From NCBI RefSeq assembly GCF_001412535.1, contig NZ_CP011774.1, forward strand, positions 3,260,539 to 3,292,538: a stretch of 32,000 nt of DNA, read 5' to 3'. Origin of the DNA: Limnohabitans sp. 63ED37-2. Its GTDB lineage: Bacteria > Pseudomonadota > Gammaproteobacteria > Burkholderiales > Burkholderiaceae_C. Below, piece after piece: positions 4,312 through 24,468 of this stretch. The stretch's first letter is position 1; every line of letters starts with the position of its first letter. The notes under the pieces are model-generated. The model worked only from the letters and a program-made list of their open reading frames with translations, ran no database searches and was not told the DNA's origin. A program made the position numbers and the translations under genes.

Positions 4312-4349
4312 GGCCCGGTAGCTCAGTTGGTAGAGCAGCGGATTGAAAA
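4312..4349 (+). pseudogene. tRNA-Phe 5' half (nt 1-38, ends at the anticodon loop); left junction of the accessory region
   Basis: 38/38 identical to 17564-17601 (acceptor 5' strand, D arm, anticodon stem 5' strand and loop TTGAAAA). Identity stops at 4350. Confidence 0.85.
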
Positions 4350-8907: not shown

Positions 8908-8987
8908 ACTGAAAAATTCAAGTGAATTTCAGTAGAAAACCCAGCACTTTTGGGGTGAATCTGTCGGAATTAGCGAACGAGACAGGC

Positions 8988-9242
8988 TCAGCTGAAACGC
9001 AAGTTTGATTTGACCCTGCGCCTGCGAGCAGCTTTCAACTTGATCGGCTTGGGTTTGACCGCTCGACTCTTTGCCCAGATTTGCTGCTGCTTGAGTTTTT
9101 GCTGTTGTTGCCTAGCTTGCTGCGCTACCTGTCGTTTTTGTTTGGCTGCTGCGTCACGCTGCTGAGTAACGGCGCTGTACTCAGCGGGTGACATGGAGCC
9201 ATAGGACGTGATGTTTTCTAGAAGTTCGGCGATACGCATCAT
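8988..9242 (-). CDS. Small Gln/Lys/Arg-rich hypothetical protein
   Basis: 84-aa ORF. Its low-complexity charged part (QQARQQQQKLKQQQ, KPKPIKLKAARRRR) resembles the C-terminal tail of the island 2 ORF 23831-24169. Confidence 0.4.
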   Translation of the reverse strand: MMRIAELLENITSYGSMSPAEYSAVTQQRDAAAKQKRQVAQQARQQQQKLKQQQIWAKSRAVKPKPIKLKAARRRRVKSNLRFS

Positions 9243-9272
9243 GTATTTAATGCCGCGTATGCCGAGCTCACA

Positions 9273-9422
9273 TCAATCTAGAACCTCTGTGTAGTTCAGC
9301 ACATTGCCCTTGCCGAATTGAGCCTCACCGAGCAATTTGGCGTCAATGGCATTGACGGCGAACACGATGGTGTGGGTCGTCTGCGTTACTGACAGACGTA
9401 CCCAGAGTTGAAATCGCTTCAT
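9273..9422 (-). CDS. Small conserved island protein (homologue of the N-terminal part of 23831-24169)
   Basis: MKRFQLWVRLSVTQTTHTIVFAVNAIDAKLLGEAQFGKGNV aligns with MNKYLVTVRVGGQLVKTAVFADSTIHAKLLCQYKYGMNSI of island 2. The ATG at 9422 is preferred over 9461, which overlaps the upstream gene. Confidence 0.5.
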   Translation of the reverse strand: MKRFQLWVRLSVTQTTHTIVFAVNAIDAKLLGEAQFGKGNVLNYTEVLD

Positions 9423-9435
9423 ATCGCTCAAGACT

Positions 9436-9882
9436 TCAGCGTTGAAAACTGGAGCGAACATTTCCAGCTGTGGTTTCCAATTGCGTATCCAACTCGCCTA
9501 CTTCGATGGCAGATTTGATGACTTCCAAAGTGGAGACTAATTCGTTTGGGCTTGAGATTTCAATGGCGAACTTTCCCTTGGCTAGCTCCAGTACGCGAGC
9601 ACCGTAGCGGACAGTAATGGCTGTCTTGCCGTTCTCAGCAATGAACCACCAAGCCTTCACTCGCTTGGGTACTTCAACCTGTTTTCGTACTCCGGTTTCG
9701 GAGTCAATGATTGTGCGAAATTTGCTGGCACTGAATTGACTTCCGGAAGTCTGTGCTTTTGCCAGTTGAATCTGCTCCCACAGACGTTTGCTCATCTTGT
9801 TGCGGCGAAGTTGTACGGGATTGATGCTGGTGCTCTTTTGGGCTGCGGTCAATTTGAGTCCTGCCAATGTTGCTGTTGCCAT
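9436..9882 (-). CDS. Conserved island backbone protein of unknown function (148 aa)
   Basis: The ATG at 9882 has a strong AAGGAGA RBS. By eye, about half of the residues are identical to 23260-23700 (LKLTAAQK, RRNK..KRLWEQ..LAKAQ, WWF, VRYG..VLELAKGK, GELD). Confidence 0.75.
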   Translation of the reverse strand: MATATLAGLKLTAAQKSTSINPVQLRRNKMSKRLWEQIQLAKAQTSGSQFSASKFRTIIDSETGVRKQVEVPKRVKAWWFIAENGKTAITVRYGARVLELAKGKFAIEISSPNELVSTLEVIKSAIEVGELDTQLETTAGNVRSSFQR

Positions 9883-10588
9883 TTCGTTTCTCCTTTGTAT
9901 GAATGGACAACGCAAGTGTGTTTTCGAGATACTGATCTGGGCAACCAACCAGTGATGAGCCCATTCAAGTTGGCGGGACTCTCCAAAGATTTAGCCAGTT
10001 TTCATGAGGCTTCATTTGGTCTTCGCTAAATAAAACTGACAGGCAGAGCGAATCACAGTCTCTGTGCTGCCATTTATCACTACTGATTACGAGCCGCGTC
10101 ACTCACTTGTTATGACGCCCAGAAACTGGACAACGGTGTCTCAGGGAAGGAAGATTTGCGCAGTAGCAAAGATTTGTCGAAACCACTTTCACCAGTGGAG
10201 TTATGGATTGCAACCTATTACTGACAAAGGAAAAAAAGCACAAAGATGGAAGGCTCTAAGCCTTCAGCATCACGAGCAAGTAATAACTGATAACTTGCAA
10301 GCACTGCGATCGGTTGGCACTTCAGCCATCGCAGACGCTGCGTTTCAAAGCAGCACATAAAAGGAGATCGCGAAACCGCCCTTGCCTATAAAAAGGTTGT
10401 GCAGAAGTGCTGTGGTAACGAACTCACCAAAAGAGTCCTATCCACACTGAGCCCTGTGTAGGCTCAGTGTGGGTTGAATCTTCCAAAAGTCTCTAAGTCA
10501 AACCAATCGATCGAATTCTTCGGAGACTGAAATGAAGAAGAAATGTGCGATGAGCGAATGCGAAGAGCAAGCGAACGCGAGTTCGCTC

Positions 10589-11089
10589 TTAACCTAGTGC
10601 TGCAATGTATGCGGCCTTGAGAGCTTCATCTGTGACGCAAAGGCGTACCCAGTTCAATGAGGTGTCATCCCACTCAGGTGATCGCAATACCTTGGCAGTG
10701 ATCTCGGCAGCTAACTCCACCGGAAACTTGAAAACACCAATACCCATTGCAGGCATGGCAACAGACTCAATGTTGTGAGCCACGGCGATGGACAGCGCCG
10801 ATCTAAATGCCGACTCTAGATAGGCCTCAGCCTCTTCCTCAAATAAGTAATGTCCAGCACGGGCGTGGATCACATACTGATTGGGTAACTTGAAGCCCGG
10901 GGTGATCACTGCCATGCCTAGAGCGAGTGGGGCAAACTGCTCGCAGTAGTCCTCAAGCTCATCACCAGCAGCCGTATGAATTGCACCAGCAACACCAGAT
11001 CCAAGACGCAGGTTGGCATTGGCAGAATTGATCACCGCTTGGGCATCTGGCTGCTTGACTAAATTGGCAACGACGACTTGGATGTCCAT
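10589..11089 (-). CDS. Stand-alone macro domain protein (ADP-ribose binding/hydrolase family)
   Basis: The motifs VINSANANLRLGSGVAGAIHTAAG and SVAMPAMGIGVFKFP are the two signature glycine-rich loops of macro domains. The 166-aa size fits a single domain. Confidence 0.85.
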   Translation of the reverse strand: MDIQVVVANLVKQPDAQAVINSANANLRLGSGVAGAIHTAAGDELEDYCEQFAPLALGMAVITPGFKLPNQYVIHARAGHYLFEEEAEAYLESAFRSALSIAVAHNIESVAMPAMGIGVFKFPVELAAEITAKVLRSPEWDDTSLNWVRLCVTDEALKAAYIAALG

Positions 11090-11217
11090 ATGGGCAGATC
11101 AGTAGGTGGGGTTAGATTAGATCACCAGGGGTACGGTTCTCAGTCCCCCTTGAAAATTGCGCAGCAAAATTTTGCATAGCGAAGATTGATTTTCTGGGGA
11201 TTTCTAAGGGCCGATAT

Positions 11218-11922
11218 TTACTCATCTTCAGAGGTTTTTATTTCATAATAATCACGCCAGATACCTTGTGAATCTGGTTTAACAAGATACAAGCCACCAC
11301 CACAGATACCGCTAAAGTTCAGCTCGAATGAGGCGGGTTCACCTTTGTATTGAAGGTTAAGAATGTCATATTCAGCGCCATTGAGGAGTCCTGTCATGTA
11401 TGTCGCTTCAGACAGATCCGAGCTGGTATCTAAGTCTCTTACTTCGAGCAAAAAGTCTTTCAATTCAACCATCTTGTCAGTCGTTTGAAGCTCAGTAATC
11501 AACTCGCCGTCATCATATTCAACCACCTCTACAAGCAGGTGCATTCCTTCTGGAACCATAAAGTCGTGATCTTGATTTTCTGCGTAACGCATTAAGAGTG
11601 CACTCTCAACATCATGTGTCTCATCTTCGAAGGGGTCATCTATCTCCAGAGATTCAACCTGTATCGCTTTCCCATTAAACTTAATTGCAATACTAGGATC
11701 TTCATGCATTCCGTGACAGATGAATTTGCAAATCGCTGTTGCGTCATCAAGAATTTCTGAGGTCTCGAAAGGCGTGGTCAAGTCACTTCCCGAGTCAGAG
11801 ATTTTGATTTCATACTTCCGCATGAAGTTGTCATCAACGAAATAAGCGTATGCCTGAACTCCGGAGCCGGAAAAACAGGCTGTGATCGTGTTGATCTTGG
11901 CTGCATTGGTTGTTTTGGACAT
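11218..11922 (-). CDS. Strongly acidic hypothetical protein (234 aa)
   Basis: An AAGGA RBS precedes the ATG at 11922. By my count it has about 48 Asp+Glu versus about 16 Lys+Arg. I recognise no catalytic motif. It lies 128 nt upstream of the macro gene on the same strand. Confidence 0.65.
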   Translation of the reverse strand: MSKTTNAAKINTITACFSGSGVQAYAYFVDDNFMRKYEIKISDSGSDLTTPFETSEILDDATAICKFICHGMHEDPSIAIKFNGKAIQVESLEIDDPFEDETHDVESALLMRYAENQDHDFMVPEGMHLLVEVVEYDDGELITELQTTDKMVELKDFLLEVRDLDTSSDLSEATYMTGLLNGAEYDILNLQYKGEPASFELNFSGICGGGLYLVKPDSQGIWRDYYEIKTSEDE

Positions 11923-12239
11923 CTACATTCCTTTAGTCATTAGATGGGGCAGAAGCAACGTGTACTGTTTTTAAGCAGCGAAATGATCCGGCTTGTGACA
12001 GCTAGCCGCCGCTATAAGAGAATTCCAAGATTATTAGATTATTCATTCAATCGTGTCCATCGCGCCACATTCCAAGCAGAAATTCGGCACCAAAGAGAAC
12101 ATACATAGTCTTTGAGCTCAGCTGTAAGTCGTTGATTTTGAACAACTCTTTATCGAGCCCGAGCAGCTCAAAATTCTGGTTGCCCAGACCGGGGTAAAGA
12201 TCACACACTAAATACGCACAAATTCATAGGAGAGTGCGT

Positions 12240-12788
12240 ATGCCGCAAGCCAAAACTTTGACCCCCGTAGAAATTGAAAAAGTGTTGCTGTACATCGCCA
12301 GCAAGCCCAACGCCCAGCGCAACCGGCTCATGTTCCTGCTGACAGTGTGGGCAGGGTTTCGAGTCAGTGAGGTTGCAGGGTTGAGGATCAGCGATGTACG
12401 AAACGTGGACGGCTCTGTACGAGCAGAGGTGTACTTGTCCGCTGAAAGAGTCAAGCACGGGCACGAAGGTGTGGTCTATCTCAATGAGCGGCTGCAGGCT
12501 GAGTTGGTTAAATTCATCGAGTCGCGTAATTGGCATGCTGCAGATCAGGCATTGTTCTGCACACAAGCTAATCCGCGAAAGGGTTTTTCAGCAAATACCA
12601 TGACTCAGCATTTCCACTACCTCTACAAAAGAACGGGCATTGCAGGTGGTAGCAGTCACAGTGGTCGGCGCACCTTCATCACAACACTGGCAAATAAAGG
12701 TGTCAGTGTGCGCTTGCTGGCAAGCCTTGTGCGGCATGCCAACATCGCTACCACCCAGCGTTACATCGATGTCAATGACGACATGAAA
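12240..12788 (+). pseudogene. FimB/FimE-sized tyrosine recombinase, 3' end cut off by IS30 copy 2
   Basis: AGGAGA RBS and ATG at 12240. About 50 percent identical by eye to 21330-21902. Catalytic signature present: GFRVSEV, HSGRRT, RHANIATTQRY. Homology ends at ...DVNDDMK at the IS boundary (12788), and the remaining ORF is read-through into the IS. Confidence 0.8.
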
Positions 12789-13848
12789 GGCGGATTCAAG
12801 TACGAACTGCAACACGGTTTAACGAGGCGTGAAACACCTCGTGGGGTGTCTTGAATCCCAGCCGCTTTCTGGGCCGGTGATTCAATCTGTTTTCGATCAT
12901 AGTCAACTCCTCATCGGTGACAGTTTCCATGCGCCTCTTCTTGGGAATGTATTGGCGCAGCAAACCATTGAAGTTCTCGTTGCTGCCGCGCTGCCAGCTG
13001 CAATACGGATCGGCAAAGTAAGTCTGGATGCCAAGGGCCTGATCGATGGCCTGGTGATCGGCAAACTCCTTGCCGTTGTCTACCGTCAAGGTCTTCACCC
13101 GTGAGCTCAGGGGCTTGAGCATGCCTTCAATAGCCCGGCCCACCAAATCAGCAGACTTGTTGGGCACTTTGGCCAGCACAGCAAAGCCACTCTTGCGTTC
13201 TACCAGTGTCACGATGGCTTGTTTGTGAGCCGCGCCAATAACGGTATCACCTTCCCAGTGGCCCACTTGCTTGCGATCTTCAATGTGGCTTGGTCTCTCG
13301 CTGATCGGGCGGCGGTTCGGGATCTGACCACGTCTATCACGCCCGCACAGGTGGCGTTTGCGCCGAGGCTTTTGGCTACGCAGGTGCGTGTGTAAATCAC
13401 CACCGGCAGCCTTGTTCGCATAGACATACAAATAGACGCTCTCATGGCTGACCGCCACCTTGCCTGCAATCTGCTCGGGGCTCCATTGAATGCCAAGGTA
13501 GAAATCCACATCGGACCAGACTTTGGAATCTAAACGGCGGGCATTACGGCTTCGCTGTGCCCGCTCAGAAGCCTTGGCGCAGGCTTGTTCGGCGCGATAG
13601 CCACGCTGACCGCGGCCACGGCTGAGTTCGCGGCTGATGGTGCTGCGGCTCCTGCCCAATGAACGGGCGATCTCGCTGATGGTCTGTTTGGCTTTCAAGA
13701 GGCTGTGAATTTGGTATCGTTCTTCTCGGCTGAGGTGCTTGTACATCTGGCAACTTGGACTTGGCGGTTTGAGTGGCCATGATGCCTTGACATCCTCAGC
13801 CACCCATCACCGGGTTTATCTTTGTTGCACCTCGTACTTGAATCCGCC
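12789..13848 (-). mobile_element. IS30-family insertion sequence, copy 2 (1060 bp), inverted relative to copy 1
   Basis: Same terminal repeats and length as copy 1. The encoded transposase is identical. The only differences I found are two adjacent synonymous bases (8759-8760 AC versus the equivalent GA at 12936-12937 on the coding strand). The flanks AAA and AAC share only 2 nt. Confidence 0.9.
12796..13746 (-). CDS. IS30-family DDE transposase
   Basis: Translation is identical to 7950-8900. Confidence 0.9.
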   Translation of the reverse strand: MYKHLSREERYQIHSLLKAKQTISEIARSLGRSRSTISRELSRGRGQRGYRAEQACAKASERAQRSRNARRLDSKVWSDVDFYLGIQWSPEQIAGKVAVSHESVYLYVYANKAAGGDLHTHLRSQKPRRKRHLCGRDRRGQIPNRRPISERPSHIEDRKQVGHWEGDTVIGAAHKQAIVTLVERKSGFAVLAKVPNKSADLVGRAIEGMLKPLSSRVKTLTVDNGKEFADHQAIDQALGIQTYFADPYCSWQRGSNENFNGLLRQYIPKKRRMETVTDEELTMIENRLNHRPRKRLGFKTPHEVFHASLNRVAVRT

Positions 13849-14495
13849 AACTCATACTTCACACCCTCCTTTTGTGCGTACATGGCATACCTGAAGTAAT
13901 TTCTTCGCGGTTCAAGAATGACCTCAATCCCTTGCTTTTCAAGTCGCTCGATGATTTCATCAGCGATACACAAGGCGCGGATTGCATTCTTAGCCGTGGC
14001 GACTATGGGGATTTGCTCTTGCCGAGAGTGAAAGTAGCTGAATTCAAAGAGGGTGGTTGGGGGCCATTTGGCAGGTTGATGCATGGCAGACTCAAAACTC
14101 TGACTTATCTTTTTCTCAATGGCTTTGATGTGTGCCTTGATACCTTCTGCAGTTTTAATGCAGCGTAAGTCGTGCAGTTGTTCAATGGTTCGAAGTTGGG
14201 GCTGCTCTGGCGGTTTTTTAGCTGCTTTGACGATTGCGCCTCGCGACCTGTTCTGTTCCGCTTGAACCTCGTCGGGCAAGTTGATGGTGGGGTTGTGATT
14301 AGGGTAAGGCAACTCAGGGCGTGCATCTTCTTTGCCCAGCTGCTTCCTTGTCCAGTGCCCAGATCTGGGCAGCGGAATGCCCTGCTTTTTGCAAATTTTT
14401 CTCAGTCCAACATCACTGAGATTTAATTTTTTAGCCAGATGGATCATGGGCGTTTCCCAGACCATTTCGAAAAGCTCTATGCGAGTAGTTTCCAT
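13849..14495 (-). pseudogene. Hypothetical protein with N-terminal HTH-like motif, 3' end interrupted by IS30 copy 2
   Basis: The N-terminus METTRIELFEMVWETPMIHLAKKLNLSDVGLRKICKKQGIPLPRSGHW resembles a widespread uncharacterised N-terminal module. The ORF runs without a stop into the IS end at 13848 (after ...GVKYEL). Confidence 0.6.
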
Positions 14496-14581
14496 ACATG
14501 CTCCACAAAGTGTGATTCATGTATGAGGGTGTATCAGAGGTTAGGCTTACTCCCAGTCGCAAGCGTCAAAAAAATTGACAC

Positions 14582-15898
14582 TCAATCAGCCAACTTTCCT
14601 GCTGCCATGGTTGCTGTCAATTTCGAATAGTGCTTTTCCAGCATCAAGATGGATGTACCCATCTGCCTAGCCAATGTGTGGATGTCGGTGCCAGCCAGTA
14701 ATTCCATAGTGGCGTAGGTGTGCCGCAACGAATACAGGGTGCGCTCTTGGCCGCTGCTCATGTCCCGACTTAACCCAGCCGCAGCCAACATGCGCTTGAA
14801 CGTGCCCTGAAATCCATAGGGCTGTGCGCCATCATCAAATGCAAACACCTTGTGTGGCAGCTTGGCAGCGATGGCTTCATCCAATGTCATTGAAACGGAT
14901 TCCTGTCGCATAGCCAACCGAGCTAATGCTTCTGCAGCACGGTGTTTTGCAATTAACCACCGACCACCCGTCTTGCCCGAAACCCAAATGCGAAGGTATC
15001 GCTGATCACCCACCTGATGCCACTCAATGTGTTGCCACAGCATGTTGAGACTTTCACGCCCAGTACGCATGCCTGTTGCCAGCAGGACCTCTACATAGTC
15101 CCTCAATAGCAACTTGATCTGGCGACCCGTATGTCTATGTGCGTCACCATCAGCCCAAGTTTTCAGAAACTCCAAAAGCCGTTGAACCTCTTCAGCTGTG
15201 AAACCCGGGCGAGCCACACTTTTCTTACCTCGTCTGCTGAGTCTTGGTACAGGTGTATTGGCGGACAGCCAACCACGCTCAATGGCTAAGTCAATGATCC
15301 GACTGTAGGCACTGGCATGGGTCATTAGTGTGCTGGCTTTGGGCACTGTGCCCATTTGTTCGTTCCGCCACAGTTCATATTTGCGTACAGTTGCGATGTC
15401 AATGTTGGTCAGGTTGTACTTGCCGAAAAAGGGAATCAAGTACTTGCGGATCACCCGCTGATAGTCAGCACAGGTCCGTGGTTTGATGCCCTGTTCAATT
15501 TCCAGTTCTAACTGTTTGTAGCAAGCCTGAGCCACGACGCCGAAGGTTTTGGTCTGCAATGGCAGTCCCATTTCTTCTGCGAATCTGGCACGGTCATAGA
15601 TTGTGCTGGCGACACGCCGCGCGTATTCCAAGTCCTTGTGCTTGGTGGTGTAGTGGTGCCACTTCTGGTCAAACAGTTTGAATCTGACCTGCCATACGGT
15701 GCTTTGTGTCCGCTTGTACAAGACCACGCAACCATCTCGCATGTGATGCAGGCGGTCACTGTCGCTGCTGCGCCCACCCACAAGTTTGAGGTGGAAGATG
15801 TTGCTCTGGGGTGCGGGGAATTGGTCGGGCTGGTTTTCGGTAATCCGCTGCTCAATGGTCAGGGAGTTTTTGCTGGATTTCACGCTGGCACGCTCCAA
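14582..15898 (-). CDS. Tyrosine integrase of island 1
   Basis: 438 aa. The catalytic region has ATGMRTGRE, LYSLRHTYATMELLAGTDIHTLARQMGTS and LEKHYSKL. It is clearly homologous (about 45-50 percent by eye) to the island 2 integrase. It is transcribed away from the intact tRNA-Phe. Confidence 0.9.
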   Translation of the reverse strand: MERASVKSSKNSLTIEQRITENQPDQFPAPQSNIFHLKLVGGRSSDSDRLHHMRDGCVVLYKRTQSTVWQVRFKLFDQKWHHYTTKHKDLEYARRVASTIYDRARFAEEMGLPLQTKTFGVVAQACYKQLELEIEQGIKPRTCADYQRVIRKYLIPFFGKYNLTNIDIATVRKYELWRNEQMGTVPKASTLMTHASAYSRIIDLAIERGWLSANTPVPRLSRRGKKSVARPGFTAEEVQRLLEFLKTWADGDAHRHTGRQIKLLLRDYVEVLLATGMRTGRESLNMLWQHIEWHQVGDQRYLRIWVSGKTGGRWLIAKHRAAEALARLAMRQESVSMTLDEAIAAKLPHKVFAFDDGAQPYGFQGTFKRMLAAAGLSRDMSSGQERTLYSLRHTYATMELLAGTDIHTLARQMGTSILMLEKHYSKLTATMAAGKLAD

Positions 15899-15979
15899 AA
15901 AAGTGCAGCGTAATTTCGGACCTGTGTCCTGGACAACCGGGTGGAATAAAACCTTTGCTTCTTTTGAAACCTGGATTTG

Positions 15980-17134
15980 CTACAACAAATCAGGTAGCTG
16001 GTTAATTTTGTAGCCTAGAGATGCCAAGATATTTTTGGTTACCCCAGGGCTGACGTTGTCACGATTACCCGGCACGATGAGCGTGGGGCTTCCAGATTTT
16101 TTCAATTTTATATGGGACCCTTTTCCGCCAGGGGTCACGTTGTAGCCGTGCTTACCACAGACCTTAATGATTTCGTCACTTGAGCATGTTCTGAGTGGTG
16201 TAGCTGTAACTGGAACAACAGACCTTTTGGAGCGTGGAACGATTGTCCATATGTCGCTATTTATGTTGAGGAAGGCATGATTAATTCGCGGAGCCATATT
16301 CCAATATAGCTGATGGTGCGTTGGGTTTTGAAGACCTTCTAGTACTTTTGAAAAAAGTTGATGTTGGCCATTTTCAAAATTCTTTTTAGTAAGGTATTGG
16401 GGTGCTAAGCGATATCCTGGTGGATTTCTCGGAAACGATTTTTGCAAGTATGACTGTGCCGCCTTTTTCAATGAATCTGAGACCCACAAAGACTCACCAA
16501 CATCTCTGTACATAAAAGCATTCGCTAATGCCTCTTCTAACTGAAGGTCAGTTCCTGCGGCAACTTTGTAAACATTGTTGAAGTACGGCAAGTATGAAGA
16601 GCGTCTTTGAACGGCATGAAGTCGAAGTCCAAGGCATTCAGTCTTATGGTGATACAACTCGTGGTGATAAAAAACAGAGAAAGCTGTACGAAGCAGTCCT
16701 TTCGTAAAGATGGTGCGTTGCGAAGAATTAAGTGACGCTCCAACAATTCCGGTTTCGATATAGATCTTTTTTGCTAATCGTTTTAGGCATTCCTCTTTGA
16801 TGAAGATGCCCCAGTCGTAGCCATGGAAGTGAATCGGTTGGTACCAAGCGCAGACGTCCCATTCTTCCGGTTTTGAGGCATCCTGATCAGATCCCTCTTC
16901 GAAAATTTCATATGGAGTCTCACTGTCAATCTCCCAGTCATCACCATAGATTTCCCAGTCGTTGTCAGGACTTCTGTCTTGTGGCTTGCTGTTTGGGAAG
17001 AGCCTGCCCCAATCTACTTGTCTAATTTCGTAGCGATCATGATCAATTTCTTTGTGCCATGGTGACTGCCCCAACTCAAGACTATTGTCAGCATCAAGCA
17101 CACTGATGATTTCATCTATTCTGTTCATGTTCAT
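15980..17134 (-). CDS. Fusion protein: N-terminal domain with HExxH motif plus C-terminal HicA-like toxin domain
   Basis: 384 aa. HELYH occupies residues 158-162 (nt 16649-16663), with a possible third ligand in LQLEEALANAF about 40 aa downstream. The C-terminal about 60 aa (SSDEIIKVCGKHGYNVTPGGKGSHIKLKKSGSPTLIVPGNRDNVSPGVTKNILASLG) matches the HicA/YcfA pattern, including the GSH histidine. Confidence 0.75.
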   Translation of the reverse strand: MNMNRIDEIISVLDADNSLELGQSPWHKEIDHDRYEIRQVDWGRLFPNSKPQDRSPDNDWEIYGDDWEIDSETPYEIFEEGSDQDASKPEEWDVCAWYQPIHFHGYDWGIFIKEECLKRLAKKIYIETGIVGASLNSSQRTIFTKGLLRTAFSVFYHHELYHHKTECLGLRLHAVQRRSSYLPYFNNVYKVAAGTDLQLEEALANAFMYRDVGESLWVSDSLKKAAQSYLQKSFPRNPPGYRLAPQYLTKKNFENGQHQLFSKVLEGLQNPTHHQLYWNMAPRINHAFLNINSDIWTIVPRSKRSVVPVTATPLRTCSSDEIIKVCGKHGYNVTPGGKGSHIKLKKSGSPTLIVPGNRDNVSPGVTKNILASLGYKINQLPDLL

Positions 17135-17542
17135 TCCGTTTTTATATAGGTCAATCTCAGGGCAGGCAATAAGCGGCTATCAACCAGCGAGCTTTGTTGA
17201 AATATACAAGGGCTTGGACGGGCTGACTAAAGGGCACATCTTCGTCTAAGCTGAAGGCCCGCTTCGACCCAACTCATTCTTCTGGCTTGGCAACGGTCCA
17301 GAGCATAGCCGTCACTCAGCCTCCACTAAGCGTCAATTTTCTTTACGCTTTTGCGCCCACCCCTACTTCTAGCAGACAACCCCGGTCAACCTCAAGCCGG
17401 TGGCGCATCCCCACTCCGCACGGTGCTCAAAAAGTGTGCAACGGCTGTGCTAAGACGCTGGCACAGCAAAACCGAAGCCCAAGTTAGGGTCTCCCGGTGA
17501 AGCACTTTTTTGGACACAGCAGGCATCCCCACGGAAAAGTCC

Positions 17543-17551
17543 TGCTACAAT
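17543..17551 (+). promoter_or_regulatory. Extended -10 element (TGcTACAAT) for the intact tRNA-Phe
   Basis: Lies 12 nt upstream of the tRNA 5' end. The surrounding 21 nt (17531-17551) match 4281-4301 at 17/21. A T-run plus TTGGAC (17510-17515) sits 30 nt upstream, with the same geometry as TTGAAG (4260-4265) at the chromosomal copy. Confidence 0.45.
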
Positions 17552-17563
17552 CTCTTGCTTACC

Positions 17564-17639
<76 letters not shown>

Positions 17640-17644
17640 GTTCT

Positions 17645-17680
17645 ACACCGTAAGTGCGAAAGTGCTTACGGTGTTTTACT
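17645..17680 (+). terminator. Rho-independent terminator after the intact tRNA-Phe
   Basis: The stem ACACCGTAAG(TGC) / (GTG)CTTACGGTGT has a GAAA tetraloop and is followed by TTTT. Confidence 0.7.
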
Positions 17681-17750
17681 TTGTAGTGTTAGCGTAATAC
17701 ATATGCTGCCAACGCTGCCTCAACTTGCTACACGCAGAGAGGCTTGCTAA

Positions 17751-19043
17751 ATGCAGCAGCCACCGCACTCCACCTTGTATTTAGAGGCAGAGCGACACGC
17801 GGATGGAAAAAAGTCTGCGTTTCAAAAAACCACCCTCCGCAGCACCCTCACAGCCCTCCACGCTGCTCAACCGCAGTCCATCTACTTGCGAGACGGCGAA
17901 CTTGTCTTGTATCGACGCAGCCGCAGCCTGCTCTATCAATGTCGCTACCGTTTGGCTGACGGCAGTTGGGTAAGACAGACAACGGGTAAAGCAGCGTTAG
18001 AACACGCCATAGCCCGTGCTTGCGACATCTACGACGAAGCCAGATACAGACAAAGGTTGGGTTTAGCACACCGCACACACTCTGTCGCACAGATTGCTGC
18101 TGTTTGCTGTGCTGCGTTGCGGCAGCAGATTGACGGCAAAGGCAAGAAGACGGCGTTGAATGACTACCTCAGCATAATTGAACGCTACTTCGTGCCTTAC
18201 TTTGGTGAGCGGCAGTTGGAGACATTGACGCACACGGATGTGCGTGAGTTTGAGTTGTGGCGGGATAGGCAAATGACACGCAAGCCTAAAACCAGCACCC
18301 TCAACAATTTCACCAGTGCTTGGAGCAGGCTGGTTGCCACAGCCGTAGAGCAAGGCTACATATCAGAGCGTGTGCCAGTGCCCAAACTCACAAGCAAGGG
18401 CGAGAAGGGTAAAACACGCCCAGCGTTTAGCAAGGAAGAGATAGAGCAGTTGTTGGAGTTTGTGGAAACTTGGCAGCACAAGGGCAAGTTTGCTGTGGAG
18501 CACGAAATCCGTCCCTTGCTGCGTGACTACATTGAGATGTTGCTTTACACGGGTATGCGGCACGGCACAGAGGCAATGGGCATTAGGTGGCGGGACTTGG
18601 AGTGGCACACAAAAGATGGTGTGCGTTATCTGCGTGTATGGGTTGATGGAAAAACGGGCGGACGCTGGCTCATTGCCAAGCACAAGGCAGTTGATGTCTT
18701 GCGTAGGCTACACGCACGACAGAAGGACATTGCCTCTGTGCCGTTTGAAGATGTGCTCACTACACGAGTGCCGCACTTGCTGTTCCGCTTCAGTGATGGA
18801 CATCAGCCGCATAGTTTGGTGGGAACTTTTAGAAAGTTGATGCGGGACAGCGGCTTGTTGGTGGATGGTGCAGGGCAAACGCGAACACTCTACAGCCTAC
18901 GACACACCTACGCCACGCTGGCGTTGCTGGAGGGTGGGGCTGATATACACACGCTGAGCAAGCAGATGGGCAATAGTGCGGCAATGATTGAACGGCACTA
19001 CAGCAAATTGACAGCGACAATGGCGGCGGATAGGTTGGCTTAA
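17751..19043 (+). CDS. Tyrosine integrase of island 2
   Basis: 430 aa. Motifs: YTGMRHGTE, LYSLRHTYATLALLEGGADIHTLSKQMGNS and IERHYSKL. It is a paralogue of 14582-15898. Confidence 0.9.
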   Translation: MQQPPHSTLYLEAERHADGKKSAFQKTTLRSTLTALHAAQPQSIYLRDGELVLYRRSRSLLYQCRYRLADGSWVRQTTGKAALEHAIARACDIYDEARYRQRLGLAHRTHSVAQIAAVCCAALRQQIDGKGKKTALNDYLSIIERYFVPYFGERQLETLTHTDVREFELWRDRQMTRKPKTSTLNNFTSAWSRLVATAVEQGYISERVPVPKLTSKGEKGKTRPAFSKEEIEQLLEFVETWQHKGKFAVEHEIRPLLRDYIEMLLYTGMRHGTEAMGIRWRDLEWHTKDGVRYLRVWVDGKTGGRWLIAKHKAVDVLRRLHARQKDIASVPFEDVLTTRVPHLLFRFSDGHQPHSLVGTFRKLMRDSGLLVDGAGQTRTLYSLRHTYATLALLEGGADIHTLSKQMGNSAAMIERHYSKLTATMAADRLA

Positions 19044-19098
19044 CAAATTTGTTGATTCTTTATTTGAGATGTGTATGATTAAAGAGAATGGAGAATTT

Positions 19099-19350
19099 AT
19101 GAAATCATTTTTAAAAACAACTGTATTCGCTTCAATTGTTATTGTGGTGAGTGGCTGTGGTACATCACCATCGTATCAACCTCAACCACAAAGACAACTC
19201 ACACCATTAGAGGCCTGTTTAAATGAAGCAAAAAGAGCGGAAGCGAGATGTTCGTTGCCGCACCTTTTTCAAAATAGACCGCAAGAAATTAGAGCGTGTG
19301 AAGATAGAGAGTTAATTCAGCAAGATAGATGTTATGCAAGATTTAAATGA
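19099..19350 (+). CDS. Small lipoprotein, Cys-rich mature part
   Basis: A GGAGA RBS lies 4 nt before the ATG at 19099. The signal peptide MKSFLKTTVFASIVIVVSGC has a lipobox VSGC. The mature part has four further Cys residues. Confidence 0.6.
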   Translation: MKSFLKTTVFASIVIVVSGCGTSPSYQPQPQRQLTPLEACLNEAKRAEARCSLPHLFQNRPQEIRACEDRELIQQDRCYARFK

Positions 19351-19562
19351 TTGAACATCTAAAATTAAAAGTTTTGTTAATAGCCTGCTGTTCTGCATCA
19401 GGACTGGCGTTGGCAAGTGCTGGGACATTAAGAAGTTGTGAAGGTATCAGCACCAGTGCTGGCTACAAGTATGTGGGAACATACTGTGTAGATTACGAAT
19501 GTAAATTTGTAGTGAGAAAAATATTCAACGAATATTGCCCGTATCTTTTGCCCAATGAATGA
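19347..19562 (+). CDS. Small exported Cys-rich protein
   Basis: ATGA overlap with the upstream gene. It has a hydrophobic N-terminus (KVLLIACCSASGLALASA, possible lipobox LIAC) and four Cys residues in the 45-aa mature part. Confidence 0.5.
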   Translation: MIEHLKLKVLLIACCSASGLALASAGTLRSCEGISTSAGYKYVGTYCVDYECKFVVRKIFNEYCPYLLPNE

Positions 19563-19576
19563 AGGATAAATGTTAA

Positions 19577-19837
19577 ATGAGCACACCACAACAACGACTT
19601 GAAGAAATAGCCAAAGAAAAAAAGGCACTTGCAGATGAAGAAGCACAGTTGCTGGCAGCGTCGAAAGATGCTGACTTGGAACTGGTGAAGAAGTTGTGCA
19701 AGCAGCACGGATTCACAGCAACACAACTGCGTGGATGCTTGGCAACTAAAGGCAAGAAAAAGCCTGCAGCAGCGGCTACGGAAAAGAAGCCAGCAGCAAA
19801 GAAGACTGCTGCGAAGAAAACAGCCAAATCCAAGTAA
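19577..19837 (+). CDS. H-NS N-terminal-like coiled-coil protein with Lys/Ala-rich basic tail
   Basis: 86 aa. The N-terminal heptad region and the segment LVKKLCKQHGFTATQL resemble the oligomerisation domain and the ..YGIT..EL segment of betaproteobacterial H-NS-like proteins. The C-terminus KGKKKPAAAATEKKPAAKKTAAKKTAKSK is histone-H1-like. The canonical H-NS DNA-binding motif is absent. Confidence 0.6.
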   Translation: MSTPQQRLEEIAKEKKALADEEAQLLAASKDADLELVKKLCKQHGFTATQLRGCLATKGKKKPAAAATEKKPAAKKTAAKKTAKSK

Positions 19838-19859
19838 TCTCAACTTGATGTAGCAAGAG

Positions 19860-19891
19860 CAGCGTGGGCTAACAACTCACGCTGTTTTTTT
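19860..19891 (+). terminator. Rho-independent terminator after the H-NS-like gene
   Basis: A 7-bp stem CAGCGTG / CACGCTG with an 11-nt loop is followed by 7 T (19885-19891). The next ORF's ATG (19892) abuts the T-run with no Shine-Dalgarno sequence. Confidence 0.55.
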
Positions 19892-20503
19892 ATGCCAAAA
19901 CTTGACGGAACACACATACTTGAGCGTTTGAAGAAACGCATTGAGCAACTGGAAGCGGGTGATGAAATTGCTGACAAAGAAATCCGCAGTCTGCTCAACG
20001 ATGCACAACGAGCGGAGTTGGACGGTGCTTGGGAACAGCAGCAGCAACTACGAAAGAACAAAAGAGCAAGAACAGAGCAAGAACAGCAAGCATTAGGATG
20101 GAAGAGCAAACGACAGGTGCGGATAGAAGTGCTGAAGGCTGCACTGAAAACTGCTTGGGATGGGATTGAAGCAGAGTTTGATCGGTTGAAAGATCAAGCA
20201 GAAATTCGCGGTGCCAAAATTTTCTTTGACACACTGACCCAAGCATTGAAAGATGGCAAGGACAAGCAAGTTGCTGAGAAATTGGCAAACAATGCAATGA
20301 CAAGAGCAGGCTTGCGGCGAATGGACGGACAGCAAGTTGGACAGCAAGGACTGACCAAGCGAGACAGAGAGATTAGGGCAATGGAAGATGCGTTGCTTGA
20401 AAAGGCAGTGAGTGAAATGGACGACTACGAGCGTGAGCAGTATGAGTTAGGGCAAGAGCACGAAAAGGCACTGCGTGAAAGAAGCAAAAAACTTGGTAGG
20501 TAG
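19892..20503 (+). CDS. Hypothetical helical, charged protein (203 aa)
   Basis: Long ORF with coding-like composition and no recognisable motif. The start lacks an RBS, so expression and start position are uncertain. Confidence 0.55.
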   Translation: MPKLDGTHILERLKKRIEQLEAGDEIADKEIRSLLNDAQRAELDGAWEQQQQLRKNKRARTEQEQQALGWKSKRQVRIEVLKAALKTAWDGIEAEFDRLKDQAEIRGAKIFFDTLTQALKDGKDKQVAEKLANNAMTRAGLRRMDGQQVGQQGLTKRDREIRAMEDALLEKAVSEMDDYEREQYELGQEHEKALRERSKKLGR

Positions 20504-20551
20504 GCTGGAAGGCAGGTGAATAGTGGCTTTGCGGGGTTTGGGCAGAGTTAA

Positions 20552-20620
20552 AGGGTATGGTTTATTGAAAAGCAGGGTTTTTGCCAGTGCAAGTTTGGTG
20601 CTGTGAAAAACCCTGCTTTT
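20552..20620. repeat. Island 2 intergenic repeat, copy A: 35-bp conserved block plus long hairpin
   Basis: 20552-20586 (AGGGTATGGTTTATTGAAAAGCAGGGTTTTTGCCA) is identical to 23714-23748. A 15-bp stem AAAAGCAGGGTTTTT (20568-20582) pairs with AAAAACCCTGCTTTT (20606-20620) across a 23-nt loop. Confidence 0.6.
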
Positions 20621-20660
20621 TGCTAAACCCTATGTGTTTAGCGTAGCAAATGGAGCATCG

Positions 20661-21329
20661 ATGGCAACAGCAGCGAAAACAACCAAGCAAATAATCCAAG
20701 CATACAAAGCAGTGCGACAGGTTGAAGCACTGACGCAAGCGAAGTTGGATGCACTGCTGGAAACAAACACACTCTACAAGTTGTTCGAGCCAGACACACG
20801 ACATCCTTACTATGTGTTGGCAGATGCTGGGAAAAATACACTTGCTGCTTTTGAATCGGCAATTGCTGGCGTGCTTGATTGGAAGATTGGAAGTTCAACT
20901 ATTGGTGAAGAACTGGACAAAGTGAAGGCAAGGCAGATAGTGAATGAAGAAGCGGAAGATGCAGACTTGGATGCATTGCGACTCATACAGCCAGTTGCAA
21001 TGACTGAAGAGCAAGTGGCAGATAAATTGATAACCGCTTACTACGCTGCTTGTTCGGTTTGGATTAAAGCAAAAGACAGCGTGGTCAATGCTGAATTGTC
21101 AGATTTGTTTGGGAAGAAAAATGCTGAGCGGCATAAAGAGACACCTGCTGTAAAACTGACAAAAGAAGCAAACGCAGCGATTCGTAATATTATGAAATCC
21201 ACTCAGCAAATGAGAGACTATGGAAATGGCACCAACACACTTCGACGAGAACTTGAAAAGAAGCAAGTGATGCGTGGATTGAGTGGTCAAGGCATAGATG
21301 CTGCAATTAAACTGATGTTGAAACCGTAA
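20661..21329 (+). CDS. Hypothetical protein (222 aa)
   Basis: A GGAG RBS precedes the ATG at 20661 (the ORF track starts at an upstream GTG, 20634). No motif recognised. Its stop abuts the stop of the convergent recombinase gene. Confidence 0.6.
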   Translation: MATAAKTTKQIIQAYKAVRQVEALTQAKLDALLETNTLYKLFEPDTRHPYYVLADAGKNTLAAFESAIAGVLDWKIGSSTIGEELDKVKARQIVNEEAEDADLDALRLIQPVAMTEEQVADKLITAYYAACSVWIKAKDSVVNAELSDLFGKKNAERHKETPAVKLTKEANAAIRNIMKSTQQMRDYGNGTNTLRRELEKKQVMRGLSGQGIDAAIKLMLKP

Positions 21330-21902
21330 TCAGACCAACTCCACGGCCTTGCGAAGAACATCATCTGCAGTCGTCACATACCTCATCGTTGTTTTTATGT
21401 CGCGATGACCGGCTAATTTTGCTAAAACAAATACAGAGATTCCTTGCGAGGCCAAAGAGGACAGAAAAGTTTTTCTTCCGCTGTGCGAACTGGCGTTGCT
21501 AACACCAGCCTTGCGATACAACCAGTAAAAGTGCTGGGCGAGTGTGTTGGGTGAAAAACTGCAGCGTGGTCCGCGATGTGTGGGGAACAATGGCAACGCT
21601 GGGTCTTTGTTGGTGCGTGTAGCAATGTAGTCTGCCAACTCTTGCTGCAAACGGCTGTTGATGTAGATAGTGCGAGCGTGATTGTGTTTGACACGATGAG
21701 CAGCAAGAAAGACCTCGCCACGCACACAACCCGTGCTGTCCAACACATCACCAAGTGTCAGCCCAGCAACTTCGCTGACACGCAAGCCTGCTGCAACCGT
21801 CATCATCAGCATTGCTCTGTTGCGTTGTGCGTAGGGTTGAGTTGCTGTGTAAGTGAGCACTCGATCAAGTTCTGCGGGTGTAAGTGATTTTGCTGTTGCC
21901 AT
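21330..21902 (-). CDS. FimB/FimE-sized tyrosine recombinase (catalytic domain only, 190 aa)
   Basis: GGAG lies 6 nt before the ATG at 21902. Motifs: LTPAELDRVL...AQRNRAMLMMTVAAGLRVSEV, HSGRKT and GHRDIKTTMRY. The length and the N-terminal LT..E...L.....P.A.RN pattern resemble FimB/FimE-type invertases as I recall them. Confidence 0.85.
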   Translation of the reverse strand: MATAKSLTPAELDRVLTYTATQPYAQRNRAMLMMTVAAGLRVSEVAGLTLGDVLDSTGCVRGEVFLAAHRVKHNHARTIYINSRLQQELADYIATRTNKDPALPLFPTHRGPRCSFSPNTLAQHFYWLYRKAGVSNASSHSGRKTFLSSLASQGISVFVLAKLAGHRDIKTTMRYVTTADDVLRKAVELV

Positions 21903-22782
21903 ATGTTGCTCCAAATAATGTGCGTGAAATAAGTGTGCGTTCTTATCGGTGTTGAGAACAAGAGAAACCCGATGCTTTGGCGGGTTGATAGTGATCTGTT
22001 CTAAAACAAGAGGTTGCGTTGCCGTCCAAGTAGTTTGTGTATTCTGTTATCTCTCAAGTATTTACGCTGCAGCGTGGGCAGTGAGCAACGAAACGAGCAA
22101 GAACGCATAAAAAGCCCTACAACGGCGTTTTGACCGCCGCCAGCATCGCAGCGAGCAAGGACGAAAAAATCACTGCGTGTAGGGCTGATTTGAGGTGCTG
22201 CTGCGTGTTTTTGCCCGAAAGTAAGTTGTTGCCACAAAAAATCTGCTGCGTAATTTCTGCGTGGTTGCGAGATCTCGGGTGTTGGTGATTTGCTCTAACA
22301 CGGGTGTTGGACAAGAGTGTGGTCATACTTTCGTTTGACCGATGTTTTGCTGACAGATGAAACAAGGGTGTAGAGCGAACTGGCGTTCGCTGTGCTGTCG
22401 TAATGCTCAGGTCGCTTCGCTCTGTCGCATTACTCAGCACCACTTGCTTCGCGTTCGGTATTTGGTATTGACTGGTTTGGGAAAGTTTTGAGCAAACGAC
22501 GGCTATGTCATCGCAAGATGAACAGAAGCCGCCGTGTCGTTCTGGTCAGTGCAAAGCCCATCGCAGGACGAGATTGAAAGAGTTTGACGCAAGACGAATG
22601 TATTGGAACTTGCAAACTGCTTCTGCATTGATTTGCATTGCAGCAACTCTGCGGCTCACTCAGTGCAACAAGCCTTCAATCCAACCTGTTGCGAGTGCGG
22701 GGTCATTAGCCGTCATATTACAACCCGCGTTTTTTCCCTTTGTTAGAGCAGTGGAGTATCTGCTGTAGTAGTGCCTGAATGT

Positions 22783-23106
22783 TTAGTGTTGTGCCTGTGC
22801 CAAATGTCGGTGCTGTTTGAATAGTTGCCTGTTGATTTTGCTGCTGATGTTAAGAATGGGATTGGCTGCTGTGGGTTTGAGTTTAATTCTTGTGTTCTTG
22901 TGTGCCATTTGATGCTGAAATGTTTCCAGTGTCGTGCGTTGAGATTGGGTCAGTAGGTTGCTGTGTTGTGTGAGTAGAGCGTGTGCCTGTTGTTGTGCCT
23001 GAAGTAGTCGAATGTGCGTAGTGCCAAATGTCTGAACAGCAATGCCGTTGTCTCGCAACCAGTCTGCTGTCAGTCCGTCATCCATAAAGTTCTTGTATTT
23101 GTTCAT
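22783..23106 (-). CDS. Possible small Gln/His-rich hypothetical protein
   Basis: The ORF is divergent from 23260-23700. An ATG at 23106 (MNKYKNFMDDGLTADWLRDNG...) is more plausible than the 23181 start. No homology recognised. Weak call. Confidence 0.35.
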   Translation of the reverse strand: MNKYKNFMDDGLTADWLRDNGIAVQTFGTTHIRLLQAQQQAHALLTQHSNLLTQSQRTTLETFQHQMAHKNTRIKLKPTAANPILNISSKINRQLFKQHRHLAQAQH

Positions 23107-23259
23107 ACAAGTATTTAGCAACGACCAAACAATGCCTGTGTAAAAGTGAATGATTGTTTGGTGTGTGTGGCAGATTGACACTGGACGGCAGAAAGAGGTT
23201 GTCCAGATGTTGGTGATGAAAATAAAGTTAGTTCATTGCTACATAGAAAGGACAACGCA

Positions 23260-23700
23260 ATGACAGCACTTACAGGTTTGAAATTGACGGCGGCACAGAA
23301 GCCCACGCAAATGAGCCCCGTTCAGCAACGCCGAAACAAGTTGGCAAAACGCTTGTGGGAACAGGCAGAGTTGGCAAAGGCACAGCAAACGGGTGGCACA
23401 TTTGCACCCAAAAAGTTCCGCTCGATTACAGATGCGAACACTGGCGAACGCAAGCAAGTTGAGCAATCCAAAAAAATCAAGCAGTGGTGGTTCGTTGCAG
23501 ATAGTGGCAAGTTGGTGTTGAGCGTGAGATACGGCACCAAAGTGCTTGAGTTGGCAAAGGGCAAGTGGGCAGTGGAAGTGGGTAGCGAAAAGGATTTGGT
23601 GCCTACGCTTGAACTGCTGAAGGGTGCGGTGCTGGGTGGTGAGTTGGATGCACAGATTGAAGCAGCGTCCAACAAACTGCGTGAGGGCTTTGGAGGGTAA
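23260..23700 (+). CDS. Conserved island backbone protein of unknown function (146 aa)
   Basis: An AAAGGA RBS precedes the ATG at 23260. It is a homologue of 9436-9882. Confidence 0.75.
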   Translation: MTALTGLKLTAAQKPTQMSPVQQRRNKLAKRLWEQAELAKAQQTGGTFAPKKFRSITDANTGERKQVEQSKKIKQWWFVADSGKLVLSVRYGTKVLELAKGKWAVEVGSEKDLVPTLELLKGAVLGGELDAQIEAASNKLREGFGG

Positions 23701-23713
23701 GGATTGGGGGTAG

Positions 23714-23779
23714 AGGGTATGGTTTATTGAAAAGCAGGGTTTTTGCCACGCTACTTGGGTAGGGTGAAAAACCGTGCTT
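23714..23779. repeat. Island 2 intergenic repeat, copy B
   Basis: The 35-bp block is identical to 20552-20586. The equivalent hairpin (23730-23744 with 23767-23779) has one mismatch. Confidence 0.55.
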
Positions 23780-23830
23780 ATCGATAAACAGGGGCTGTTG
23801 ATGCAGCAATGTGTGGGCACTAAATACTTG

Positions 23831-24169
23831 ATGAACAAATATTTGGTGACCGTGCGTGTAGGTGGGCAGTTGGTGAAAACAGCAGTATTTGCTGACAGCA
23901 CCATTCACGCAAAACTGCTGTGTCAATACAAGTATGGGATGAACAGCATTGCTGTAAGTCCTGTGCGTGTAGATGAAGCAGAAGATGACAGCACATTGCT
24001 TGACAGCACCATCAAGCCCAAGCCTCCAGCAACACCAGCACAAGCCCGCATCAACTCGCTCAAGCAAGGCGTGGAGCGTAGTAGAGAGCAACTACACGCA
24101 GAACGCGAGCGACAACGACAACAGCGTGAAGCAGAACGCAGACGCAAGCAACAACAGCAACGCTTCTAA
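23831..24169 (+). CDS. Small conserved island protein with Gln/Arg-rich tail
   Basis: The ATG at 23831 gives MNKYLVTVRVGG..., homologous to 9273-9422. The tail (KPKPPATPAQ..., ERERQRQQREAERRRKQQQQRF) resembles 8988-9242. Confidence 0.5.
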   Translation: MNKYLVTVRVGGQLVKTAVFADSTIHAKLLCQYKYGMNSIAVSPVRVDEAEDDSTLLDSTIKPKPPATPAQARINSLKQGVERSREQLHAERERQRQQREAERRRKQQQQRF

Positions 24170-24419
24170 CGCTGCGTAGTGCTGTGCTTGACAGCGTAAT
24201 GCAACGCTGAAATGTTGCAAAACGGCGTGAATATGCGGGTTATGGCGACGAAATGTAGTGATTTAGAAAAACACGGCGACATCAATGACAGGCATAGTTA
24301 AAATGGTGCGAGATACTTTGCAAGCAGCGTTTTGCGAAATGCAGCAAAAACACGCACACCCCACTTTTGCAACGCTGCAGATGCTTGTGCTACAATGCAT
24401 TATCAGTTTGGGGACAGCG

Positions 24420-24465
<46 letters not shown>

Positions 24466-24468
24466 ATC

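Follow-up and report, generated by a model that had tools for sequence, protein, structure and literature searches.

The genomic contexts of HicA toxins have been sorted into 14 classes (Gerdes, mBio 2024, PMC10865869). Class 13, fused HicBA, consists of monocistronic proteins of 340-440 aa in which a mainly alpha-helical N-region precedes a canonical C-terminal HicA. This class was catalogued by computation only and is described in one sentence, its N-region bears the label 'HicB' by position only, and a CapRel-like self-regulated defence toxin has been proposed for classes 11-13 (PMC10865869). Here we describe a gene of this kind in a 32,000-nt stretch of contig NZ_CP011774.1 of Limnohabitans sp. 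63ED37-2, hereafter the window. The gene encodes an N-terminal domain (N-domain) with an HExxHH motif fused to a C-terminal HicA, and it fits every feature stated for class 13 (384 aa, helical over residues 114-280, HicA at residues 320-374); compared by these stated features, the family to which it belongs is very likely Gerdes class 13 (representative WP_067334119.1). The published account of that class (PMC10865869) is without the HExxHH/EE site, the N-domain-only (N-only) forms, or the embedding in restriction-modification (R-M), Dpd and Hma clusters that we report below. Its product is probably a phage-defence toxin that needs no second gene, of a kind that was catalogued by computation in 2024, and we lean, if only modestly, towards a single-polypeptide HicA toxin that is regulated in cis and has an abortive-infection-type role in defence.

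Several other described systems share parts of this design. Canonical type II HicAB modules (S. pneumoniae HicBA 5yrz, B. pseudomallei HicAB 6g26 and Y. pestis HicA3 4p78) have the HicA fold and the G-x-G-S-H motif in common with it, but here there is no hicB gene, HicB fold or DNA-binding domain, and the toxin is the tail of a much longer protein. CapRelSJ46 and HEC-07 likewise join a type II toxin domain to a regulatory or sensor region in a single polypeptide. HEC-07, a multi-domain RelE fusion with measured anti-phage activity, is embedded in Hma, and relatives of our fusion gene likewise lie next to HmaB/HmaC. The toxin folds differ, however (RelA/SpoT-like in CapRelSJ46 and RelE in HEC-07, versus HicA), the partner domains are unrelated, and the paper describing HEC-07 does not mention HicA. 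PrrC of EcoprrI is a latent anticodon nuclease lodged among type I genes and released on T4 infection; the likeness lies in the RNase effector and in the placement of fusion relatives between hsdS and hsdR, as prrC is. PrrC itself is nonetheless unrelated, with an ABC-ATPase N-domain and a different nuclease, and the window gene has no adjacent R-M system. ImmA/IrrE (M78) and Lit-type peptidases have HExxH and a mobile-element or defence context in common with this family, but their signatures lack its H163, E166 and H102, and no profile or fold similarity to them was detected. In the library of papers searched, none links HicA with dpdA.

The gene, its encoded protein and its leader are laid out as follows.

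15980..17134, minus strand: fusion gene for an HExxHH domain (N-terminal) and HicA (C-terminal), 384 aa if read from the first ATG
16850..17134, minus strand: acidic, Trp-rich N-terminal segment, residues 1-95, net charge -19
16205..16849, minus strand: conserved core of the N-domain, residues 96-310, a beta-hairpin followed by a helical bundle
16829..16849, minus strand: AWYQPIH motif, residues 96-102, with H102 invariant
16637..16663, minus strand: HELYHHKTE, residues 158-166, within the long helix 137-176
16517..16537, minus strand: EEALANA, residues 200-206, at the start of helix 199-211
16013..16177, minus strand: HicA domain, residues 320-374, with the His341 codon at 16112-16114
17135..17563, no strand assigned: non-coding 429-nt leader that separates the fusion gene from tRNA-Phe

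A true HicA domain forms the C-terminus. Residues 320-374 match Pfam HicA_toxin (PF07927; E=7e-8, 32.9 bits against a gathering threshold of 27), and so do 44/44 relatives in a family alignment whose members are 37-85% identical to the query. Sequence searches with phmmer and with the family profile reach the solved HicA toxins 5yrz, 4p78, 4c26 and 6g26, with chain 5yrz_B matched at E=2.5e-5 by phmmer and at 8.8e-9 by the profile. In an AlphaFold model of the full-length protein (pLDDT, for predicted local distance difference test, 90.5; predicted TM-score, pTM, 0.90), the region adopts the alpha-beta-beta-beta-alpha fold resembling a double-stranded RNA-binding domain (dsRBD), with helices at 319-328 and 363-372 and strands at 332-334, 341-345 and 352-355 by DSSP. 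Foldseek aligns it with 5yrz_B (TM 0.83, root-mean-square deviation (rmsd) 1.5 A), 6g26_F (TM 0.79) and 1whz (TM 0.74). H341 of the GKGSH motif is invariant in all 44 relatives, G336, G337, K338, G339 and S340 are each kept in 43 of the 44, and the domain carries a family-wide charge of +6.5 +/- 1.4. From these features the C-terminal ~65 aa are predicted to form a catalytically competent HicA RNase domain.

We found no separate antitoxin gene beside the fusion gene. In canonical modules the neighbouring hicB codes for an antitoxin of partial RNase H fold, usually with an HTH or RHH domain; neither the window nor some 50 related loci showed a HicB-like or other partner gene next to the fusion. 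Open reading frames (ORFs) within 17135-17563 are only 46-66 aa long and match no family in a Pfam scan, no open upstream reading frame adjoins the fusion gene start, and the gap between the fusion gene stop and the integrase holds no gene. Clustering of the genes at positions +/-4 across 36 genome loci of relatives likewise yielded no conserved small neighbour. An upstream ORF of 137-164 aa overlaps the fusion start by 8 nt in an 85%-identical relative (L044 7595-8008, L045 7562-8008, L046 3-497); it has no Pfam hit on record and no counterpart in the window or at other loci, and may be a partner confined to that lineage, or else an artefact of annotation.

A preliminary description of this DNA, made from its letters, had proposed a HicA-like module with a catalytic-type GSH histidine, had remarked that no antitoxin-like ORF was adjacent, and had pointed to an acidic, Trp-containing start and to a HELYH motif with a downstream glutamate in EEALANAF. 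All of these are borne out by the Pfam, Foldseek, translation and alignment results given here. That description would have been overturned by a C-terminus unlike HicA or by an N-terminal domain with the HicB antitoxin fold; a structural search with the AlphaFold models instead returned HicA at the C-terminus (TM 0.83 to 5yrz_B), and no HicB chain was matched with either the full-length or the N-only model, even though the library contains HicAB complexes. The survey of homologue neighbourhoods that it had suggested gave recurrent restriction-type clusters and no conserved partner gene in the 36 loci.

The start of the gene needs a small adjustment. A 382-aa homologue with 99% identity begins at the second ATG (MNRIDE...), as most relatives do, and the true start is therefore probably the ATG at 17128, giving 382 aa. 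The leader holds a minus-strand promoter-like site at 17229-17201, and the number of such sites is not above chance. Contigs from a run labelled as RNA-seq cover 16174-16461 and 17244-17580; they are undirected and may be DNA, and we discarded them as evidence of transcription.

Invariant positions are more numerous in the N-domain than in the HicA domain. HELYH (H158-H162) and EEALANA (E200-A206) were confirmed by translation, and the alignment shows H158, E159, H162, H163 and E166, E200, E201, A204 and A206, and H102 to be invariant, together with A96, W97, Y98, P100, Y184, Y189 and Y241, for about 24 invariant N-domain positions despite an overall identity of 37-45%. By our own estimate a chance HExxH occurs in ~1% of proteins of similar length; judged from the alignment, invariance across phyla is not the work of chance. 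By DSSP of the full-length model and of an N-only AlphaFold model (residues 1-312; pLDDT 87.2, pTM 0.89), a short N-terminal helix leads into the acidic segment, and a beta-hairpin (96-99, 109-113) and a helical bundle follow; in the full-length model helices predominate over residues 114-280. In both models a single 40-residue helix (137-176) bears HELYHHKTE. From the sequence, the spacing of H158, H162 and E166 (i, i+4, i+8) places them on one helical face, with E159 and H163 on the adjacent face. The cluster of invariant His and Glu residues (H102; H158-E-x-x-H-H163-x-x-E166; E200-E201) most likely binds a metal. Ahead of the core, residues 1-95 contain 5 Trp and carry a net charge of -19, against a mean of -17 +/- 5 for the family, and behind it a linker (residues ~296-318) is near-invariant at G302, P308, P313 and S318.

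None of the searches placed this domain in a known family. Across the 44 family members, Pfam at E<=1 gave no peptidase, nor any other accepted family besides HicA; scans of NCBIfam, PADLOC 2.0 and PHROGs returned no match for the N-domain; and PDB sequences, searched with the single sequence, a whole-protein profile and an N-domain profile, yielded nothing except HicA. Foldseek of the N-only model against the PDB gave 44 hits, none with E below 3 or a probability above 0.05 and no peptidase in the list, and the full-length model had no meaningful neighbour for the N-domain in the PDB and BFVD. We rejected weak matches to Hypoth_Ymh/TIGR02391 (E 0.014-0.14) in 1/44 members as noise, the Rx4-6H motif being absent, and also the Foldseek matches to TenA and FtsH (probability <=0.03, rmsd ~15 A). 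By the searches made, the N-domain appears to be an unannotated module with a novel fold. A metal or catalytic site in it is likely; that the site is that of a zincin peptidase is putative. The preliminary description had read the HExxH and downstream Glu as a gluzincin or ImmA/IrrE-like arrangement. This assignment, drawn from the motif alone, did not hold: it is not supported by any peptidase profile among the 44 members at E<=1 or by any peptidase fold in Foldseek.

The family is large and the N-domain also occurs by itself. With clusters drawn at 50% identity, an N-domain profile search of 1.84 billion representatives recovered 1,663 of them with E<=1e-3 and 267 with E<=1e-30, with members in Planctomycetota, Verrucomicrobiota, Actinomycetota, Alpha- and Gammaproteobacteria, Chloroflexota and Cyanobacteria and in a few archaeal metagenome-assembled genomes (MAGs); the cyanobacterial branch is divergent, still with HicA. 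IMG/VR contributed just 4 loci among 2.9 million viral contigs. The majority of members are 379-443 aa long with HicA. Others, of 304-322 aa, end just past the N-domain with all motifs intact (P0142, P0144, P0150, L015), and a third form lacks HicA and has an unannotated N-terminal extension of 90-170 aa, again with intact motifs (P0146, P0157, P0180). Loci with the N-domain and no HicA include L015 7989-8954, L022 7557-8816 and L026 7746-8981, and the HicA-less forms include archaeal MAGs (Bathyarchaeia, Thermoplasmata). Because the N-only and N-extended forms keep every motif, the N-domain is an autonomous module, in our reading an ancient one, and more than a HicA appendage. RefSeq names members either "type II toxin-antitoxin system HicA family toxin" or "hypothetical protein", and the closest named relative (69% identity) is from a Burkholderiaceae MAG. 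The sequence itself was found in freshwater, river and lake metagenomes only, and one freshwater metagenome contig of 2,966 nt has the same integrase-fusion-tRNA order as the window at ~94% identity. We also observed a 155-aa N-domain fragment directly after HmaB-HmaC in two Chloroflexota MAGs (L032 1527-1994, L033 8034-8501); it begins past the HExxHH motif, lacks HicA and is probably a decayed copy.

Relatives of the fusion gene recur in restriction-type clusters. Among the large genes closest to the fusion at the 36 genome loci, two counted per side, the commonest neighbour family was Methylase_S (type I R-M specificity), found at 5 of the 36, with HsdR domains next. The gene order hsdM-hsdS-fusion-hsdR was seen in L004, L014, L018, L020 and L060, and type I genes adjoin the fusion gene in L061 and L054. 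Genomes have about one type I R-M system each, so that type I R-M next to the fusion would be enriched by some two orders of magnitude, a rough estimate. Dpd (7-deazaguanine) clusters house three independent relatives: in L053 the fusion lies between folE/queCDE and dpdA, in L055 it follows DpdD, and in L049 it is found among DUF87, DEAD, UvrD and PDDEXK genes, beside TGT. The remaining contexts include HmaB-HmaC (L033), DrmD-DrmMI with a DruE-like helicase (L006), an HKD/Snf2 helicase with a type IIG R-M system and a NERD-kinase (L011), and an Mrr/AspBHI endonuclease with a DUF4011 helicase (L047). The restriction or defence context is clear in 7 of the 10 homologues that were located by exact sequence. 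In L060 (1-15215), a type I operon carries several passengers between hsdS and hsdR, namely Abi_C, DUF1848, the HicA fusion, DUF4145 and Schlafen/AlbA_2, which makes it a good locus for the study of embedded defences.

In the reading we favour, the N-domain (~310 aa) would replace the usual separate HicB antitoxin and, at rest, would keep the basic HicA inactive within the same chain. A trigger acting on the N-domain, either a phage-derived cue or failure of the neighbouring restriction system, would then release HicA; the freed HicA would cleave RNA, the infected cell would arrest and the phage yield would fall, following the logic of abortive infection. This scheme is modelled on proposals for CapRel-type fused toxins and on the latent RNase PrrC in R-M operons, and autoinhibition, trigger, toxicity and defence phenotype are all steps that we infer. 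It remains the most economical reading, it agrees with the preliminary description, which had suggested that the toxin could be self-contained and carry a domain acting in cis, and it matches the proposal of Gerdes for such fusions. The models offer a faint hint of masking in cis: residues 51-70 have a pLDDT of 85-89 and form beta-bridges in the full-length model but have a pLDDT of 58-72 and no bridges in the N-only model, so that they appear ordered only with HicA present, and the conserved charges are opposite (-17 in the acidic segment versus +6.5 in HicA).

A number of points weigh against a cis-regulated defence toxin. Contact between the domains is suggested by differences in pLDDT and DSSP only, and the family as a whole is known from computation only. 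PADLOC 2.0, which carries HEC models, has none for a HicA fusion. No restriction system is among the genes of the island that carries the fusion gene in the window, where the gene stands alone, and two of the ten homologues located by exact sequence (L052, L044) have no clear defence context and are surrounded by housekeeping genes. N-only proteins are common and keep every motif, so the N-domain should have a function independent of HicA, which fits a mere cis-antitoxin poorly; and its enzyme-like invariance would be uncommon among antitoxins or sensors, whose evolution is as a rule rapid.

These last points invite readings in which the N-domain is itself an enzyme. It could be a true zinc metallopeptidase, a new or highly divergent zincin whose proteolysis controls the system, with H158, H162 and E200 or E201 as ligands and E159 as catalytic base; self-cleavage in the linker (~296-318) would free HicA, or a Lit-like cleavage of a host or phage protein would serve as a second effector. 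As in zincins, the H158-E-L-Y-H162 motif lies in a helix (137-176), and the invariant E200/E201 at the start of helix 199-211 in the model is a candidate for the third-ligand Glu. The HExxH and the downstream Glu-bearing helix are invariant in 44/44, their spacing of 37-38 residues is in the gluzincin range, the linker positions G302, P308, P313 and S318 are near-invariant, the model puts a beta-hairpin ahead of the helices, and N-only forms imply an autonomous enzymatic function. The E-x-x-A-[N/D] pattern here presumably resembles the 'ExxAD' Glu-helix motif of M48, which we take as a lead only. We nonetheless consider a zincin unlikely. No peptidase family was matched by the 44 members at E<=1, and the N-domain profile finds nothing among PDB sequences; Foldseek gave no metallopeptidase for the N-domain model (best probability 0.05), did not recognise the zincin fold of mixed beta-sheet, backing helix and active-site helix in the N-only model against the PDB, and returned FtsH only as noise with the full-length model (rmsd 15 A, probability 0.02). 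Moreover, the invariant H163, E166 and H102 are outside any zincin signature, and the HExxH sits mid-way along a 40-residue helix. Slightly less likely, in our judgement, is a two-activity effector. Its main enzyme would be the N-domain, hydrolysing or modifying RNA, protein or a nucleotide in a metal-dependent way, and HicA would mainly bind RNA or provide targeting in the manner of a dsRBD, or would act as an accessory nuclease. The N-only and N-extended forms with intact motifs, the larger number of invariant positions in the N-domain than in HicA, and the dsRBD-like fold of HicA all fit this arrangement, but invariance of the HicA catalytic His in GKGSH in 44/44 argues for retained RNase chemistry over binding alone, and Pfam, PDB sequences and Foldseek disclosed no similarity to known enzymes. 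A more elaborate idea, to which we give little credence, combines the two domains: the N-domain would be a new-fold metal-dependent hydrolase that guards DNA-modification-based restriction (type I R-M, Dpd, Hma, DISARM), senses anti-restriction by phages or collapse of the restriction complex and unleashes HicA, possibly by self-cleavage of the linker, with N-only forms acting as stand-alone effectors from one family of sensor enzymes.

Two more conventional accounts fare worse. The gene could be an addiction module that stabilises its island through post-segregational killing, like classical toxin-antitoxin pairs on mobile elements, and its position at the island edge beside the integrase, in an order that recurs in the freshwater metagenome contig described above, would suit such a role. 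In a single polypeptide, however, toxin and antitoxin cannot differ in stability unless the chain is processed. In addition, most relatives lie inside restriction-type clusters and not beside integrases, and viral contigs hold only the 4 loci noted above; we regard addiction as improbable. An ordinary HicB-HicA fusion, with an N-region of the HicB type (partial RNase H fold), has in its favour the 'HicB' label that Gerdes gives the class 13 N-region, by position only (PMC10865869). It is contradicted by the Foldseek results, since both models match the HicA chains of HicAB complexes and no HicB chain although these complexes are in the library; DSSP moreover gives a mainly helical domain, no HicB profile or PDB sequence is matched, and we assign this account next to no probability.

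The preliminary description had also placed the gene in a cargo slot between an integrase and an att/tRNA site, and this is the arrangement we find: the fusion gene lies between a tyrosine integrase (14582-15898, minus strand) and tRNA-Phe (17564-17639, plus strand), at the integrase/att end of an integrative island, island A, bounded by 38-nt direct repeats. The window as a whole contains two islands, and its GC content is ~0.48 between ~4.3 and 24.5 kb versus 0.61-0.63 in the flanks. Their features are the following.

17564..17639, plus strand: tRNA-Phe (GAA), whose 5' 38 nt are attR of island A and whose 3' 49 nt are attL of island B
4312..4349, plus strand: attL of island A, a 100% repeat of the tRNA-Phe 5' 38 nt (17564-17601)
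24420..24468: attR repeat of island B, a copy of the tRNA-Phe 3' 49 nt (17595-17643)
14582..15898, minus strand: tyrosine integrase of island A (Pfam Phage_integrase), downstream of and co-oriented with the fusion gene
17751..19043, plus strand: integrase of island B, 430 aa
4799-5530, plus strand: MerR-like regulator
5985-6866, plus strand: calcineurin-like metallophosphoesterase
10589-11089, minus strand: stand-alone Macro-domain protein (E=2.6e-31)
7848-8907, plus strand, and 12789-13848, minus strand: IS30-family copies, 99.8% identical and inverted
21330-21914, minus strand: second short tyrosine recombinase, in island B, 194 aa (Phage_integrase E=1.4e-25)

Island A (~4350-17563, 13 kb), with the integrase and the HicA fusion at its tRNA-proximal end, has the integrase, the 38-nt repeat and the GC drop of a tRNA-targeting integrative island, and island B spans ~17644-24468. 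The two islands share the single tRNA-Phe in opposite polarity, and their att repeats overlap in the anticodon loop (TTGAAAA). Island A restores the 5' half of the tRNA instead of the 3' half, an unusual orientation. The functional tRNA-Phe would then be a hybrid that takes its 5' half and its promoter from island A, in which case the leader at 17135-17563 would have to supply the tRNA promoter. The two integrases are paralogues (46% identity over 393 aa) that face away from the shared tRNA-Phe; when the two are aligned, the match to integrase B starts at residue 52, and there is an ATG at 15742. Integrase A, listed with a TTG start, is therefore probably annotated too long, and its true start is probably this ATG.

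The other cargo of island A comprises the MerR-like and metallophosphatase genes, DUF6876, DUF6641, the Macro-domain gene and the two IS30-family copies. The IS30 pair brackets ~3.9 kb with the DUF6641 and Macro-domain genes and may form a composite transposon within the island. A palindrome, AGCGT-N11(A/T-rich)-ACGCT, occurs in 4 copies (4663-4683, 7213-7233, 14562-14582, 17329-17349) versus ~1 expected, a number reached in 3/100 shuffles. All four are intergenic and within island A, with one near each island end in opposite orientation; the copy at 14562-14582 abuts the integrase stop and that at 17329-17349 is within the leader of the HicA fusion. We regard the palindrome as a candidate operator or arm-type site. 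The remaining ORFs of island B mostly lack a Pfam hit. A cluster of tRNA-Asn, tRNA-Asp and tRNA-Gly lies immediately past the attR of island B (24524-24789), from which it follows that the native locus would be a Phe-Asn-Asp-Gly tRNA cluster split by the islands.

Fused toxins without partners are increasingly recognised as phage sensors made by one gene, CapRel and HEC-07 among them. The family described here is very large and spread over many phyla, and its N-domain is without a Pfam, NCBIfam, PHROG or PADLOC 2.0 model or a structural relative in the PDB. Even if the protein were to prove ordinary, its annotation would gain, as by the profile and fold searches it is neither an ImmA/IrrE peptidase nor a HicB fusion. 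With an invariant His/Glu site, forms with and without HicA, and insertion in hsdS-hsdR, Dpd, Hma and DISARM-like clusters, the family would offer a tractable case for how a toxin is silenced and triggered within its own chain, and for why restriction systems carry RNase passengers.

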